DNA of 60,129 bases, taken from a bacterium. Its GTDB lineage: Bacteria; Patescibacteriota; Andersenbacteria; UBA10190. The notes under the pieces were generated by a model. The model saw nothing but the letters and a program-made list of their open reading frames with translations, ran no database searches and had not been told where the DNA came from. Each line of letters opens with the position of its first letter. Positions within the stretch are counted from its first letter, which is position 1. Made by a program: the position numbers and the translations under genes. The stretch is taken from NCBI GenBank assembly GCA_030698495.1, contig JAUYKA010000007.1, positions 1 through 60,129 of the forward strand, given 5' to 3'. Below, piece by piece: positions 12,345 through 38,553 of the stretch.

Positions 12345-12532
12345 AATGTTATTTACTGGAAGAAATTATGTTAATGACAGTATAGGCTTTTTATCTGATT
12401 TGGAAAAGTGGGGATTTGATTGTCATGGCTTCGCCAGATCTTGCTTAGCTGTGATTAAATTGCTATATCGCCAAATTTTTGCCTTGGAATTCACTTGCAA
12501 TTGATGGGGTGTTATGTCATTATCTTGATTAT

Positions 12533-14159: not shown

Positions 14160-14396
14160 AAGGAAACGGATATTAGAAAGGTCGCTTACGCGACCGTTCA
14201 GTAGCCCTTCGAACCGACTCGCTGTTGCGAGTCTCTCTCAGGGTTCTTTGAAACAAGGAAACGGATATTAGAAAGGTCGCTTACGCGACCGTTCAAAGTA
14301 GCTCTTCGACTCCATGGCCTGTTGGCCATGTCGCTCAGAGTTCTTTGAATCAAGGAAACGGATATTAGAAAGGTCGCTTACGCGACCGTTCAAAGA
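14160..14396 (-). repeat. About 96-bp tandem repeat (2.5 units) of a structured element between tRNA-Ala and tRNA-Pro
   Basis: The block AAGGAAACGGATATTAGAAAGGTCGCTTACGCGACCGTTCA starts at 14160, 14255 and 14352. The intervening segments are homologous and their hairpin stems differ by compensatory changes. Confidence 0.85.
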
Positions 14397-14583: not shown

Positions 14584-14820
14584 TTATGTTAACCGCTTTC
14601 GACGAAACGCAAAGCGGGAGGAGGATTTCAGATATCTTTCGAAAGATGTGGCTTTTTCTTCCGTTTTGAAAGCAGCATAGAAAATAAGATCGAATGGAAG
14701 TTTATTCTTTGTGGTAGCCACGTTGCCGCGTTTATCCTCAGCCACCCTCTTTTTTAAATCCTTGGCTGATCCTATGTATATCAGACCGGTTCGTAATTTA
14801 AGTATGTAAGTATAAAACAT
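14584..14820 (-). CDS. Small GIY-YIG nuclease-family protein
   Basis: 78 aa starting MFYTYIL...GLIYIGSAKDLKKR... (GIY...YIG, Arg, later Glu). It lies 172 nt downstream of tRNA-Ala(GGC) on the same strand. Confidence 0.75.
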   Translation of the reverse strand: MFYTYILKLRTGLIYIGSAKDLKKRVAEDKRGNVATTKNKLPFDLIFYAAFKTEEKATSFERYLKSSSRFAFRRKRLT

Positions 14821-35464: not shown

Positions 35465-36082
35465 ATGAATAACCACCCGTCGGGGGTTAAACGAATAGGA
35501 GATTATCTGGCTGCCTTCTGGAAGGCGGTGCGCGAGATGTCTTGGGACACGTTGCATCTTATTCCTGTGGCGGCTTTTTTGTTTGTCAGTAGTGTGCCGA
35601 GTGAGTCTCTGGCTTTCGCGGAACAAGTGGAGTTAGCCCAGAAGCCTTTGATTTTTGAGCGCGATCCCAGCCTGGCCAGTACGGCGATTGTCGGGATTGA
35701 GGCTTGGCCGAAACAGCGTACGGCAGGAGGAGTGCTGGGATCCGGTGTTTCCCGCATACCCGACGCGGCTAAGGAGATTAAAGAAGGCACGGCAATTCGG
35801 GTGTTGTCCACGGCGTATTCTTCTACTTACGATCAAACCGATGCTAATCCTTGGGGGACAGCTTCCGGGACACGCGTACATATGGGCACAATGGCAGCCA
35901 ATTTTCTGCCGTTTGGCACCAAGGTGAGAATCGGCAACACGGTCTATACGGTGGAGGATCGCCTGAACGCGCGCTATAACGGGAAATATATCATTGATAT
36001 CTGGCAGCCTAGTCGGGAAGCGGCGTTGAGGTATGGCGTGCGTGTGGTGGAGATAGAAGTTGTATCGGTGCCATCAGAGTAA
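35465..36082 (+). CDS. 3D-domain (MltA/YabE-like) cell-wall-active protein
   Basis: 205 aa. The C-terminal sequence STAYSS...DANPWGTASGTRV..GT.AAN.LPFGTKVRIGN.VYTVEDR...IDIW is typical of 3D domains. An alternative start lies at 35537. Confidence 0.72.
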   Translation: MNNHPSGVKRIGDYLAAFWKAVREMSWDTLHLIPVAAFLFVSSVPSESLAFAEQVELAQKPLIFERDPSLASTAIVGIEAWPKQRTAGGVLGSGVSRIPDAAKEIKEGTAIRVLSTAYSSTYDQTDANPWGTASGTRVHMGTMAANFLPFGTKVRIGNTVYTVEDRLNARYNGKYIIDIWQPSREAALRYGVRVVEIEVVSVPSE

Positions 36083-36156
36083 ATACAGTAAATTAAGTAA
36101 ATACAGTGAATACAGTTGCTGTACTCGCTGAATTTACTGTATTAACTGTACTCGCT
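36079..36156. repeat. Word-built palindrome, 'TAAATACAG' dialect, overlapping the stop codon of the 3D-domain gene
   Basis: G-TAA-ATACAGTAAATTAAGTAAATACAGTGAATACAG ... CTGAATTTACTGTATTAACTGTACTCGCT. The TAA stop at 36080-36082 is part of the first word. Confidence 0.7.
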
Positions 36157-36224
36157 GGTATGGCCTTGCTATTTTCGTGATATTCGCTATACTTGCTTTT
36201 ACCTTTAGCTAATAGTGCTCTGAT

Positions 36225-36743
36225 ATGGACCTGATCAGATATTTTGAAAAAAAGCAGATTGATAATATTGATCGTCCGCGTTTGCGAGCGGGTGATGTGG
36301 TGCGCGTGGAAACAAAGATACAGGAAGGCGAAAAAGCGCGGTTGCAGACGTTCGAAGGCACCGTATTGGGGGTACGCGGCAGTGGACCTTCGCGGACATT
36401 TACAGTCAGGCGGGAGATCGGCAAGTTTGGTGTGGAGCGTATATTCCCGCTTTTTAGCCCGTTGATTACCAATATCGAAATTACCAGACGACAGAAAGTG
36501 CGTCGGGCTAAGTTGAATTACTTGCGGGAAGTCGGCAAGCGGCGCGTTAAAGAAGACGAGCTGTCCATGCAAAGATACGTGAAGGAAGAAGGGGATAAGA
36601 AGCGGCTGGCGGAGGAGGCTGTCCGACGGGAAGAGGAAGAGAAAATAAAAGCGGAAGCGGAAGTAAAGAAGCAAGTGGAAGCGGTAAAAGAGCAGCCAGA
36701 AAACGAAACTCAAATCGAAAAAGACGCGCCTCCTAAAGAATAA
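36225..36743 (+). CDS. rplS: 50S ribosomal protein L19 with a Glu/Lys-rich C-terminal extension
   Basis: The sequence ...RPRLRAGDVVRVETKIQEGEKARLQTFEGTVLGVRGSG..RTFTVRR...GVERIFPLFSP is followed by about 55 extra residues. Confidence 0.92.
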   Translation: MDLIRYFEKKQIDNIDRPRLRAGDVVRVETKIQEGEKARLQTFEGTVLGVRGSGPSRTFTVRREIGKFGVERIFPLFSPLITNIEITRRQKVRRAKLNYLREVGKRRVKEDELSMQRYVKEEGDKKRLAEEAVRREEEEKIKAEAEVKKQVEAVKEQPENETQIEKDAPPKE

Positions 36744-36776
36744 TTGTCGAACTTATAAATTGATAAATGTTATGTA

Positions 36777-36805
36777 AGCGCCGGTTGTAGATACCGGCGC
36801 TTTCT
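36777..36805 (+). terminator. Intrinsic terminator after rplS
   Basis: AGCGCCGGT-TGTAGAT-ACCGGCGCT-TTCT. Confidence 0.6.
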
Positions 36806-36823
36806 GGTATTACATGAAGACAA

Positions 36824-36898
36824 GGCGCGGTGGCGATGTAGCTAACGCGACGGTTTGTCTCGCTACGCGGGATCTGGCGTAACCATGACAAAACCTTA
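36824..36898 (+). other. 5' portion of a tRNA-like gene (copy A of a duplicated segment)
   Basis: GGCGCGG at 36824-36830 can pair with CTGCGCC at 37304-37310. Positions 36856-36895 repeat at 37240-37279 with 39 of 40 nt identical. Confidence 0.4.
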
Positions 36899-36910
36899 AT
36901 CTTTGTAGAT

Positions 36911-37153
36911 ATGCCCTATTATGTGTATATTCTTAAAAGTCTAAAGAATAATGATTTATATGTAGGTAGTACGGAGAATGTTGAGCAACGTCTATTCTTA
37001 AAGGGTAGTGTAAAATCAACAAAAGGATATCGTCCATGGGTACTTCTTGAATGCTATACTTACTACACTAGAAGTGACGCCGTGAAGCAAGAGAGGCACT
37101 TTAAACAACATCAACAAAAAGAATTGTTGAGAGCAAAACATAAGGCCGAGTAG
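36911..37153 (+). CDS. Small GIY-YIG nuclease-family protein
   Basis: 80 aa starting MPYYVYILKS..NDLYVGSTENVEQR... The stop codon lies 10 nt inside tRNA-Cys. Confidence 0.75.
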   Translation: MPYYVYILKSLKNNDLYVGSTENVEQRLFLKGSVKSTKGYRPWVLLECYTYYTRSDAVKQERHFKQHQQKELLRAKHKAE

Positions 37154-37215
37154 CCAAGTAGTAAGGCAGAGGTCTGCAAAACCTCTATACGCGAGTGCAA
37201 TTCTCGCCTCGGCCT
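37144..37215 (+). tRNA. tRNA-Cys (anticodon GCA), discriminator U73, unusual T-loop TGCAATT
   Basis: Acceptor GGCCGAG/CTCGGCC, anticodon stem-loop GAGGT-CTGCAAA-ACCTC and T-arm GCGAG-TGCAATT-CTCGC. Confidence 0.8.
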
Positions 37216-37217
37216 CA

Positions 37218-37313
37218 AGGTGATGGTAAGGCGGGGGTCTGTCTCGCTACGCGGGATCTGGCGTAGCCATGACAAAACCCTTATACATGGGTGCAAATCC
37301 CATCTGCGCCCCA
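37218..37313 (+). other. 3' portion of a tRNA-like gene (copy B of the duplicated segment plus T-arm and acceptor 3' strand)
   Basis: The repeat copy lies at 37240-37279, followed by ATGGG-TGCAAAT-CCCAT and CTGCGCC-C-CA. I could not fold a convincing anticodon arm. Confidence 0.4.
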
Positions 37314-37368
37314 ATAAAACTTATAGGGTATACGTTTAGGATTATGAATAATGTACTATTACCTTTTA

Positions 37369-37377
37369 TGGTATAAT
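37369..37377 (+). promoter_or_regulatory. Extended -10 element TGG-TATAAT, 7 nt upstream of the HNH gene's ATG
   Basis: TG lies at 37369-37370, TATAAT at 37372-37377 and ATG at 37384. This implies a leaderless transcript. Confidence 0.45.
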
Positions 37378-37383
37378 TTAAAG

Positions 37384-37863
37384 ATGGGTAGTCGAAGATC
37401 TTGGACAGCTAGCCAACTTAAAAGCGCTGTAAAAACATCATTGAGTTACCGTCAAGTAATAGAAAAACTTGGTCTTCGCCCAGCGGGTGGTAATTATTAT
37501 CAACTTCAAAAGTATGTTAAGGAATATGGACTTGATACTTCTCACTTTAAGGGTAGCGCTTGGAATAAGGGGTTGAAAGGAATTGGGAAGCCGCGTATAA
37601 AGATTAAAGATATCTTAGTTAAGGGAAGTACTTTCCAAAGCTATAAGCTAAAACAAAGGCTATTTAAAGAAAATCTTAAGCCTCAAAAATGTGAAATTTG
37701 TGGCTGGTCAGAACGAACATCTACTGGTCATTTGCCACTTGAAGTTGATCATATTAATGGTGATAGAACAGATCACAGGCTTAAAAACCTGAGAATTCTT
37801 TGCCCTAATTGTCACAGTTTGACTCCTAACTATAGATATCGTAGAGGTAAGAGTAAAAAATAA
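37384..37863 (+). CDS. HNH homing-type endonuclease
   Basis: CEICGW...LEVDHINGDRTDHRLKNLRILCPNCH (an HNH/zinc motif). The ORF could extend to 37351, but the -10 box lies inside that extension. It ends 3 nt before tRNA-Leu(TAA). Confidence 0.8.
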   Translation: MGSRRSWTASQLKSAVKTSLSYRQVIEKLGLRPAGGNYYQLQKYVKEYGLDTSHFKGSAWNKGLKGIGKPRIKIKDILVKGSTFQSYKLKQRLFKENLKPQKCEICGWSERTSTGHLPLEVDHINGDRTDHRLKNLRILCPNCHSLTPNYRYRRGKSKK

Positions 37864-37866
37864 CTT

Positions 37867-37948
37867 GCCCGGGTGGTGGAACTGGTTTACACGCACGACT
37901 TAAGATCGTGTGCCGCAAGGCATGTGGGTTCGAATCCCACTCCGGGCA
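37867..37948 (+). tRNA. tRNA-Leu (anticodon TAA), class II
   Basis: Acceptor GCCCGGG/TCCGGGC, anticodon stem-loop CACGA-CTTAAGA-TCGTG, variable arm GCC-GCAA-GGC and T-arm GTGGG-TTCGAAT-CCCAC. Confidence 0.88.
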
Positions 37949-38157
37949 CAGTGATCCGTACCCCATAAAGTAGACACGGAGGTACAATGTCCATGATTTC
38001 TTTTGTTAGAATTAATCATTAACAAAAGAACATGAGAACAATATTTTCAAATAAACAAATCGCGCGGTTAAAAAAGAATCCGTGCGTATGGCACGTTAGC
38101 GAACGCTCGATTACATCAATCGCAACCGCGCGGCGTAAGAAAACGCAAAAGGTAAAA

Positions 38158-38463
38158 CTAAAAATGCAAAACTATGGCATCGCCTTTGGCGATCTCTTGA
38201 AAATTAGATAATTTAGCGCTTTGGTTGGTTAAGAGTTGCTTGGCTGTTTTGGCACGAGGTAAGCGGTATAGCTTAAGTGTTTTGGTGTTGAAGGGCAGTT
38301 TTACGCGCAGGAGATAAATTGATTTATCGTCCCATTTTTCCCATAGTTCTACGCCTTTTTCACGGGTTTCGGTTGAAAAAATATCAAGCAGACGATCGTC
38401 TTTTTCGACGCGCACATAATCGTTGATGAAAAGTGATTTTAACAGACTGATGTAAGTGGTCAT
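38158..38463 (-). CDS. Hypothetical protein
   Basis: 101-aa ORF with no recognisable motif. It is followed upstream by a palindromic spacer. Confidence 0.4.
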   Translation of the reverse strand: MTTYISLLKSLFINDYVRVEKDDRLLDIFSTETREKGVELWEKWDDKSIYLLRVKLPFNTKTLKLYRLPRAKTAKQLLTNQSAKLSNFQEIAKGDAIVLHF

Positions 38464-38480
38464 GGGTTTGTAAATATTAT

Positions 38481-38553
38481 AGTAGTAAGCAGCAAGTAGT
38501 AAGTAGTCAGGGGATATTCGGCGTAGTTTCTTGCTACGTGCTACTTGCTACTA
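38481..38553. repeat. Word-built palindrome, 'GTAGTAAGCAG' dialect, overlapping the 3' end of the pseudouridine synthase gene
   Basis: AGTAGTAAGCAGCAAGTAGTAAGTAG ... CTACGTGCTACTTGCTACTA. Related copies lie at 2987-3035 and 50935-51030. Confidence 0.65.

Follow-up and report, generated by a model that had tools for sequence, protein, structure and literature searches.

A native tRNA-Cys gene of a candidate phyla radiation bacterium split around a small GIY-YIG nuclease gene and a replacement tRNA-Cys, probably by a mobile cassette

Genomic islands and prophages that carry an integrase use tRNA genes as insertion sites, and the end of the disrupted gene is replaced by a copy brought along with the element. 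Ssn nucleases are single-domain GIY-YIG proteins of ~94 amino acids, which bind hairpin repeats termed SRM only as single-stranded DNA (ssDNA) and cut a few nucleotides upstream (PMC11893778), and ssn genes are typically flanked on both sides by their own hairpin repeats (PMC11893778, Chenal et al. 2025). SegB of phage T4, in the parts of PMC2330249 that describe it, is a free-standing GIY-YIG homing endonuclease encoded in a tRNA gene cluster; it recognises a conserved motif of tRNA genes (the T-psi-C stem-loop), cleaves double-stranded DNA and drives co-inheritance of itself and the neighbouring tRNA genes. Repetitive extragenic palindromes (REPs) tagged with CGTC or TGTC, the latter a known variant of CGTC, include the RPEs of Rickettsia and dRS3 of Neisseria, according to the sections of Di Nocera et al. 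2013 (PMC3733652) that deal with them. The subject of this report is a locus at positions 36,824 to 37,313 of a 60,129-nt stretch of DNA (the window; contig JAUYKA010000007.1 of GenBank assembly GCA_030698495.1, positions 1 to 60,129 of the forward strand) from a bacterium of the Andersenbacteria, Patescibacteriota, in which a tRNA-Cys gene is split around a small GIY-YIG nuclease gene and a second, intact tRNA-Cys gene.

The native tRNA-Cys has probably been inactivated by a small mobile cassette, resembling Ssn systems and homing endonuclease genes, which also supplies a replacement tRNA. The locus contains two copies, A and B, of a direct repeat, and reads in order: native tRNA positions 1-34, a double-hairpin insert (H), positions 35 to ~47, the GIY-YIG open reading frame (ORF), a complete tRNA-Cys of apparently foreign type, a truncated copy (positions ~12-34), a second H, and positions 35-76, native from the T arm onward. 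The individual parts, with identities to the tRNA-Cys of a relative (G003), are:

36824..36857 (+), 5' stump of the native tRNA-Cys(GCA), positions 1-34, comprising the acceptor 5' strand, D arm, anticodon stem 5' strand and loop through G34; 88% identity to G003 positions 1-34
36858..36888 (+), H_A, 31-nt double-hairpin insert, TCTCGC-TAC-GCGGGA, then TCTGGC-GTA-ACCaTGA
36889..36901 (+), remnant of tRNA positions 35 to ~47 (CAAAACC TTAATC), covering what is left of the anticodon loop and its 3' stem strand, followed by a decayed variable loop; aligns to copy B and to tRNA-Cys orthologs
36911..37153 (+), GIY-YIG nuclease gene, 80 amino acids, single domain (PF01541, E 1.3e-11)
37144..37216 (+), intact inner tRNA-Cys(GCA) with U73 (ARAGORN; Rfam 63.3 bits)
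37217..37241 (+), 5'-truncated, degenerate second tRNA-Cys copy, the left part of copy B (by repeat comparison), with D arm and anticodon-stem 5' strand of other-lineage type (GGTAAGGC..GGGTCTG) when set against type-2 tRNA-Cys sequences
37242..37272 (+), H_B, second 31-nt double-hairpin insert, 30/31 identical to H_A
37273..37313 (+), 3' remnant, tRNA positions 35-76, with anticodon 3' strand and variable loop of foreign type, native T arm (ATGGG-TGCAAAT-CCCAT) and native acceptor 3' strand (CTGCGCC), discriminator C, then CA; 92% identity to G003 positions 35-72 over 37273-37310

The original prediction had described a 40-nt segment (36856-36895) repeated with one mismatch at 37240-37279, weaker similarity upstream of each copy and, between the copies, a 344-bp insert holding the GIY-YIG ORF and a tRNA-Cys, and had read them as one gene split, with partial duplication, around a cassette. 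All of this was borne out. The mismatch is A36882 against G37266; a repeat search extends the repeat, which is far beyond chance, to 58 nt at 88% identity (36843-36900 against 37227-37284, spacing 384 nt), with weaker gapped similarity further upstream; and the 344 bp hold the GIY-YIG ORF and a tRNA-Cys(GCA), each recognised by the searches listed above. The predicted pairing of the outermost pieces is also real, the acceptor strand CTGCGCC that follows the T arm after copy B forming six Watson-Crick pairs and one G-U pair with GGCGCGG at 36824, across the 415 nt that separate the two native halves. That these pieces belong together is confirmed by the ortholog in G003.

The G003 locus was found by searching relatives with the first repeat copy (G-numbers denote genomes, G000 being the genome studied here, and L-numbers loci). 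In G003, rplS and its terminator are followed immediately by an uninterrupted 74-nt tRNA-Cys(GCA), which ends 13 nt short of tRNA-Leu(UAA), and tRNA-Cys adjoins tRNA-Leu(UAA) in every family locus inspected. When joined, the two window pieces have ~89% identity to this gene (global alignment) and an anticodon loop UUGCAAA; deletion of the 31 nt at 36858-36888 or at 37242-37272 restores the loop UUGCAAA or CUGCAAA, respectively. Because the pieces match the G003 gene at the same locus and the GCA loop is restored, the split host is the native tRNA-Cys(GCA) of a conserved rplS / tRNA-Cys / tRNA-Leu(UAA) locus. What had been taken for a tRNA-like gene of ~105 nt and open identity is an ordinary tRNA-Cys gene of ~74 nt once the 31 nt are removed. 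The report that no normal anticodon arm could be folded holds for the DNA as it stands, since G34 and C35 are separated by a double-hairpin DNA element, and ceases to hold without the insert. A tRNA-His, suggested on the strength of the discriminator C, gives way to a U73-to-C change in a broken tRNA-Cys copy, all ~30 family tRNA-Cys orthologs having U73. U73 is one of the main identity elements of tRNA-Cys, and with the gene split and this base changed to C, the native tRNA-Cys is dead, a pseudogene.

Neither ARAGORN nor Rfam recognised a tRNA in the split host pieces, and at E up to 10 Rfam gave no family over these pieces or over H; the Rfam check that had been proposed for naming the host did not name it, and the identity came from the G003 ortholog. 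On two reconstructed joins, ARAGORN reported nothing in normal mode and, in intron mode, a spurious tRNA-Ala(GGC) whose supposed intron measured 18 nt or 13 nt; this call was rejected since the ortholog gives the true anticodon and insert boundaries. The refuting condition proposed with the prediction came out in favour of a single split gene: relatives have one uninterrupted gene at the locus, not two unrelated loci. All 20 other family loci examined carry an uninterrupted tRNA-Cys with no such GIY-YIG gene within 1.5 kb, and an order-wide search of 41 genomes found no other interrupted tRNA-Cys.

The UGCAA T-loop, which had been called atypical, is likewise real, being peculiar to tRNA-Cys among the 43 tRNAs of this genome and a lineage feature of tRNA-Cys. 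Family tRNA-Cys genes occur in two forms, one with D-loop AGUAG and T-loop UGCAA (A18 with G55) and one with the standard D-loop AGUGG and T-loop UUCGA (G18 with U55), a covariation of a tertiary pair seen at 37144-37216, at 37285-37303 and in loci L023-L052; in this genome G55 occurs in tRNA-Cys only. The UGCAA T-loop also duplicates the sequence of the anticodon loop, and in L077, L095 and L114 it serves H as a second landing site.

Within the whole genome (1.16 Mb), ARAGORN finds a single tRNA-Cys among its 43 tRNAs, the inner copy, and as the sole intact tRNA-Cys this is the genome's only working one. Its identity to the broken native gene is ~70% (gapped alignment) and to the tRNA-Cys genes of its own family 81% at most. 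In contrast, full-length identity reaches 90% to G229 and 88% to G297 and G372, which belong to other families of the phylum, and a partial match to another family reaches 92%. A Zambryskibacteria contig (L084) carries the 5' half of a broken tRNA-Cys that is closely similar to it. These comparisons point, with moderate confidence, to a foreign origin of the inner tRNA-Cys.

The ORF and the inner tRNA-Cys can be regarded as one unit, because the TAG stop codon of the ORF forms positions 8-10 of the tRNA and the C-termini of homologs (..YGLVAK, ..YGAVVK) are translated tRNA-Cys sequence, a fusion kept across phyla-level lineages. The GIY-YIG domain spans residues 3-70 and is the sole domain. 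Database homologs have 79-85 amino acids and up to 70% identity, and the named ones are all from bacteria of the candidate phyla radiation (CPR). Residues Tyr6, Tyr17, Arg27 and Glu61 are present in the window protein and invariant in the family alignment. A His-Asn pair four residues after Arg27, found in at least 90% of homologs, is missing through an in-frame two-residue deletion in the window protein only; we take its His to be the equivalent of I-TevI His31. Loss of the conserved His31-Asn32 in frame suggests that the window copy of the nuclease is crippled and probably decaying, past its active life, as usually happens to a selfish nuclease gene once it is fixed. Among solved structures, PDB sequence search and Foldseek place the UPF0213 proteins BH0048 and EF2693 closest, followed by SLX1 and I-TevI, the top Foldseek matches to the nuclease model being 1zg2, SLX1 and I-TevI. 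The AlphaFold model has a mean predicted local distance difference test score (pLDDT) of 77.7, falling to 52 around the deletion. As the GIY-YIG gene is the only ORF of the cassette, no HUH/Y1 transposase is encoded in it, nor any integrase or recombinase.

Cassettes of a GIY-YIG gene and a tRNA are common at tRNA genes across CPR bacteria. A profile of the nuclease family matched 245 of 401 sampled genomes of the phylum (61%, ~750 matches). In 23 of the 30 best loci, the start of a tRNA gene on the same strand falls within -118 to +35 nt relative to the ORF stop, and these adjacent tRNAs have twelve amino-acid identities (Cys six times, Gln four, Ser three, Leu two, and Glu, Gly, Ala, Lys, Val, Asn, Thr and Phe once each). 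Most of these loci also have, upstream of the ORF, a partial copy of a tRNA 5' end that scores well above shuffled controls. The two closest metagenomic homologs, L154 (69% identity) and L155 (63%), share the architecture of the window, with H_A identical to H_B inside direct repeats of 60 nt and 54 nt. L079 runs from a stump of positions 1-34 through H, CAAAA, the ORF, an intact tRNA-Cys, a truncated copy and H to positions 35-76, and its stump acceptor GGTGCAG pairs with the 3' remnant CTGCACC, as in the window. Variants of this layout are found in L077, L095/L114/L115 and L116, and the simplest form, in L117, consists of an H-bearing stump, the ORF and an intact tRNA, without a 3' remnant. 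At every H-bearing locus with assembled flanks, an intact H-free tRNA-Cys stands beside the H-bearing pieces; the contig of L084 ends just past the insert.

Both copies of H sit exactly between tRNA positions G34 and C35 and flank the nuclease gene on both sides, H_A 23 nt upstream of its start and H_B 88 nt downstream of its stop, and H lies on both flanks of the gene also in L154, L155, L079, L077 and L114. No uninterrupted family ortholog contains H. In all loci H is preceded by TG, giving a TGTC tag, and the DNA fold of H_B has -8.7 kcal/mol (z -2.9). A scan of one genome per species for the 20-nt core of H gave 43 matches in ~20 CPR genomes of many classes, several of which lie in tRNA-Cys at the same site, CTG^CAAA, beside a GIY-YIG ORF. 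The sequence of H varies between loci, with two 6-bp hairpins kept by compensatory changes; hairpin 1 covaries (8 double-change cells, reached by none of 500 shuffles), and hairpin 2 was fixed by the search pattern and could not vary in this test. A single long hairpin (TGTC..GCTACGC / GCGTAGC..GACA), the fold that ViennaRNA prefers, was considered and rejected, its covariation support not rising above that of shuffles. A search from 300 nt upstream of the ORF start to 400 nt downstream of the stop detected hairpin modules of 15 nt at all six best-scoring nuclease loci, as a pair in five of them and singly in L116; none of the 24 more distant loci has a pair, and three have one isolated module.

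Under the cassette reading, the element would spread horizontally, and recombination stimulated by the nuclease would carry it into tRNA genes. Being homologous to any tRNA-Cys gene, the flanking tRNA debris could act as homology arms and allow transfer by recombination after DNA uptake or nuclease damage. Recombination through this debris would explain the native/foreign mosaic of the remnants, in which the acceptor strand and D arm, and again the T arm and acceptor 3' strand, are native, and copy B has an anticodon stem and a variable loop (GGGGT...ACCCT TATAC) of a type present in other lineages. Killing of the host would be avoided, as the cassette brings a replacement tRNA. The nuclease gene may be transcribed from the captured tRNA promoter, and processing of the inner tRNA by RNase P, which would remove the stop codon of the ORF, might, speculatively, keep expression low. 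Since ssn genes are flanked by their own hairpins and H has a TGTC tag, H may also be the nuclease's own recognition site in ssDNA, in the manner of Ssn and SRM, a proposal for which the chances appear evenly balanced. Presence of H on both sides could result from staggered cuts around a palindromic site, from integration of a circular unit or from separate hairpin insertions.

Several observations weigh against this account. A single crossover with an H-free target, or a plain insertion at G34/C35 of a unit bearing one H, was rejected as a route, as neither can give two flanking copies of H. Without His31-Asn32 the window nuclease has an incomplete set of the conserved residues of the catalytic core, and the argument for a foreign tRNA is only moderate because tRNA sequences are short. 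H is not high-copy, with ~6 copies of its core in this genome, and generic 15-nt hairpins of the form TC-N4-N3-N4-GA are not enriched (117, against 84-105 in shuffles). The published SRM pattern (regular expression from PMC11893778) has 21 genomic matches and none in 36000-38500; 11 of the 21 are on contig C36, which bears a different, canonical hairpin-flanked GIY-YIG gene. Finally, H_A differs from H_B in L079 and L077, so that the two flanking hairpins need not match and could have landed independently in dead DNA.

The last point belongs also to the live alternative, unlikely on balance, that the cassette is mobile and H is an independent, tiny palindromic repeat of RPE or REP kind, which inserts after TG in exposed loops. 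In that case H would survive only in dead tRNA debris, because insertion into a live tRNA would be lethal. The unequal copies in L079 and L077, the failure of H to match the SRM pattern, the occurrence of H-like units away from GIY-YIG genes, in intergenic and other contexts of many CPR genomes, and an additional, different H in the T-loop (UG^CAA) of the L077 and L095/L114 remnants all accord with such a repeat. However, hairpin pairs are concentrated at the best-scoring nuclease loci, five with a pair and the sixth with one module, and no pair occurs at the 24 distant loci. At the present locus and at L154 and L155, both copies of H match exactly or almost exactly, yet the sequence differs from one locus to another, as expected of nuclease-specific sites, and they lie on both flanks of the gene, as SRMs do around ssn genes (PMC11893778).

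Highly improbable is an origin without any mobile element, in which tRNA-Cys was duplicated locally in tandem, one of the copies decayed, and an unrelated resident GIY-YIG gene lies between them by chance. Duplications of tRNA genes are common, and direct repeats 384 bp apart could in principle arise in this way, but the inner tRNA is only ~70% identical to the outer one and of other-family type, the stop codon of the ORF lies inside the inner tRNA in a fusion conserved in homologs of phyla-level distance, the same five-part layout recurs in unrelated lineages and the site is empty in 20 family members. Scarcely credible is a functional interrupted gene, from whose RNA the 31-nt or the whole 415-nt insert would be removed to give a tRNA-Cys or tRNA-like RNA: the insert does lie in the anticodon loop, the usual place of tRNA introns, the outer acceptor strands do still pair and the intron mode of ARAGORN can force a tRNA from the joined sequence, but the result is the spurious tRNA-Ala(GGC) with a poor arm, no group I intron (Intron_gpI) or other Rfam match appears down to E = 10, the junctions (G^TCTC... 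and ...ATGA^C) show neither the U nor the terminal G expected at group I splice sites, the tRNA-splicing endonuclease (PF01974) was not found in a genome estimated to be 100% complete by a search whose control gave matches in 4 archaea, the discriminator U73 is now C, and an intact H-free tRNA-Cys stands beside the H-bearing pieces wherever flanks are assembled (L084 cannot be judged).

A bolder form of the cassette reading, which appears doubtful, would make these loci a new class of minimal mobile element, devoid of transposase and integrase, in which a nuclease of ~80 amino acids, guided on ssDNA by the double hairpins that flank its gene, would excise or copy a ~0.4-kb unit of hairpin, gene and tRNA and insert it after TG in the loops of ssDNA tRNA hairpins, replacing host tRNA genes across CPR bacteria. 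Essential tRNA genes would then be horizontally exchanged cargo. If the cassette reading itself is true, many CPR tRNA genes have been repeatedly overwritten by tiny selfish cassettes that bear tRNAs, and are not simply inherited. Stumps and hairpin-bearing remnants look like intron-containing or novel tRNA-like genes and would mislead phylogenies based on tRNAs, as they did the original prediction. The reading also suggests a role for the poorly understood small GIY-YIG nucleases of UPF0213/Ssn type and their hairpins, namely gene invasion with built-in compensation, and could offer as tools ssDNA nucleases of very small size that are guided by hairpins, may be programmable and come with natural target pairs for testing.

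Upstream of the cassette lie three features:

36225-36743, rplS ORF
36778..36805 (+), rplS terminator hairpin, GCGCCGGT / ACCGGCGC, then TTTCT, ending the upstream operon (read from the sequence)
36805..36813 (+), putative extended -10 box TGgTATTAC, 10 nt 5' of the tRNA stump (by sequence inspection only)

The putative box was not called by a consensus promoter scan, and similar -10-like boxes occur 5' of the stumps in L154 and L118. It is likely to be the promoter of the native tRNA-Cys, and would now drive the whole cassette. Downstream, an HNH endonuclease gene (PF01844) at 37384-37863 fills the spacer between the tRNA-Cys remnant and tRNA-Leu(UAA), 13 nt long in G003, so that this tRNA spacer houses a second selfish nuclease gene. 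Homologs with 69% identity lie at the same position in G023 (L038) and G014 (L028).

Other nuclease genes and repeats of these kinds are present in the genome. A GIY-YIG gene of 95 amino acids (contig C36:11039-11326 (-), locus L106) lies amid classical hairpins tagged CGTC/TGTC (CGTCATTCCGGG..CCCGGAATC), an arrangement that resembles a canonical Ssn/SRM pair, here in a CPR genome; hhalign of the window nuclease against it gave 97.8% probability and 30% identity, which indicates homology and not clade membership. Two further small GIY-YIG genes (78 and 83 amino acids) lie by tRNA genes, at 14611-14820 (-) of the window and C34:17607-17816 (-) of G000, one between tRNA-Ala(GGC) and tRNA-Ala(CGC) and the other just downstream of tRNA-Ser(CGA). 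Solitary H-like units (a hairpin plus TCTGGCGWAGCC, in some cases then ATGACAA) occur in intergenic DNA away from tRNA and GIY-YIG genes, at 12420-12449 (-) of the window and at C5:21402-21432 (-), C4:36086 and C8:24401 of G000; in the C5 copy, the first hairpin is fully compensated (TCAAGC-TGC-GCTTGA). In some CPR genomes (L064, L067, L071, L073, L080, L083, L085, L086, L089, L091, L097 and L105; Parcubacteria GW2011_GWC2_42_12 and others), the H core is inside a longer palindromic repeat bounded by TGTCATTGCGAG... and ...ATGACAATCTC, of which one genome holds a dozen or more copies. A repeat of ~50 nt (..CAGGGTTCTTTGAAACAAGGAAACGGATATTAGAAAGGTCGC..) has at least 6 copies in the genome, several beside tRNA genes (tRNA-Ala, tRNA-Arg), at 14233-14281 and 14330-14378 (+) of the window and at C4:29342, C12:21515, C17:79466 and C17:79561 of G000.

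Compared with integrase-borne islands, the cassette similarly targets a tRNA gene and carries tRNA sequence, so that a functional tRNA survives, and direct tRNA repeats flank the insert. In contrast to them, it has no integrase or recombinase, measures only ~0.4 kb and brings a whole tRNA (at other loci a 5' part) in place of a 3' end, leaving the original as two dead pieces. With IS200/IS605 insertion sequences and REP/RAYT systems, in the portions of PMC11893778 and PMC3733652 that cite them, it shares direct-orientation subterminal hairpins at either end, insertion after a short defined sequence and the absence of a classical target duplication, and, by analogy, an internally encoded enzyme predicted to act on ssDNA. 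However, the enzyme of the cassette is a GIY-YIG protein and not an HUH/Y1 transposase, and the resemblance is one of possible working, not of family membership. We know of no strand-transfer activity in GIY-YIG proteins. Like tagged REPs as portrayed in the relevant sections of PMC3733652, H is a short tagged palindrome that can lie inside genes, is often a dimer and has no known dedicated transposase. The REPs of those sections have 8-9-bp stems, 4-5-nt loops and high copy number, whereas H has 6-bp stems and ~6 copies here; PMC3733652 nowhere names GIY-YIG, and the same sections report no insertion into tRNA genes or link to a cassette.

The likeness to SegB, as depicted in the relevant parts of PMC2330249, consists of a GIY-YIG gene among tRNA genes, whose presence or absence is here also polymorphic at a conserved locus. 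As expected of a homing endonuclease, the 20 empty family loci hold an intact target, the uninterrupted tRNA-Cys, and the native/foreign mosaic of the remnants is indirect support for copying-in by repair. SegB is larger, with extra DNA-binding parts. It is also a phage protein whose gene, in those parts of PMC2330249, sits between tRNA genes and not inside one, with no tRNA stumps, flanking hairpins or overlap of ORF and tRNA described. The Ssn systems resemble the cassette in a very small single-domain GIY-YIG protein (80 amino acids here and ~83 in intact homologs, 94 in SsnA), in a gene placed between short hairpin repeats with a (C/T)GTC tag and covarying stems, and in conservation of the GIY-YIG tyrosines, Arg and Glu. 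They differ in that the hairpins of the cassette have 6-bp stems and 3-nt loops in tandem pairs, outside the published SRM pattern, the nearest solved relatives of its nuclease are UPF0213 proteins, and the canonical SRM-flanked GIY-YIG gene of the genome is a separate one, on contig C36; PMC11893778 makes no mention of tRNA, insertion into a gene or cargo tRNA. A full-text literature search gave no paper in which GIY-YIG genes are connected with tRNA-Cys or with the tRNA genes of Patescibacteria, and none on the cassette. Set against all of these systems, the cassette belongs with known kinds, the homing-type GIY-YIG genes and Ssn with its hairpins, and is not a new category.

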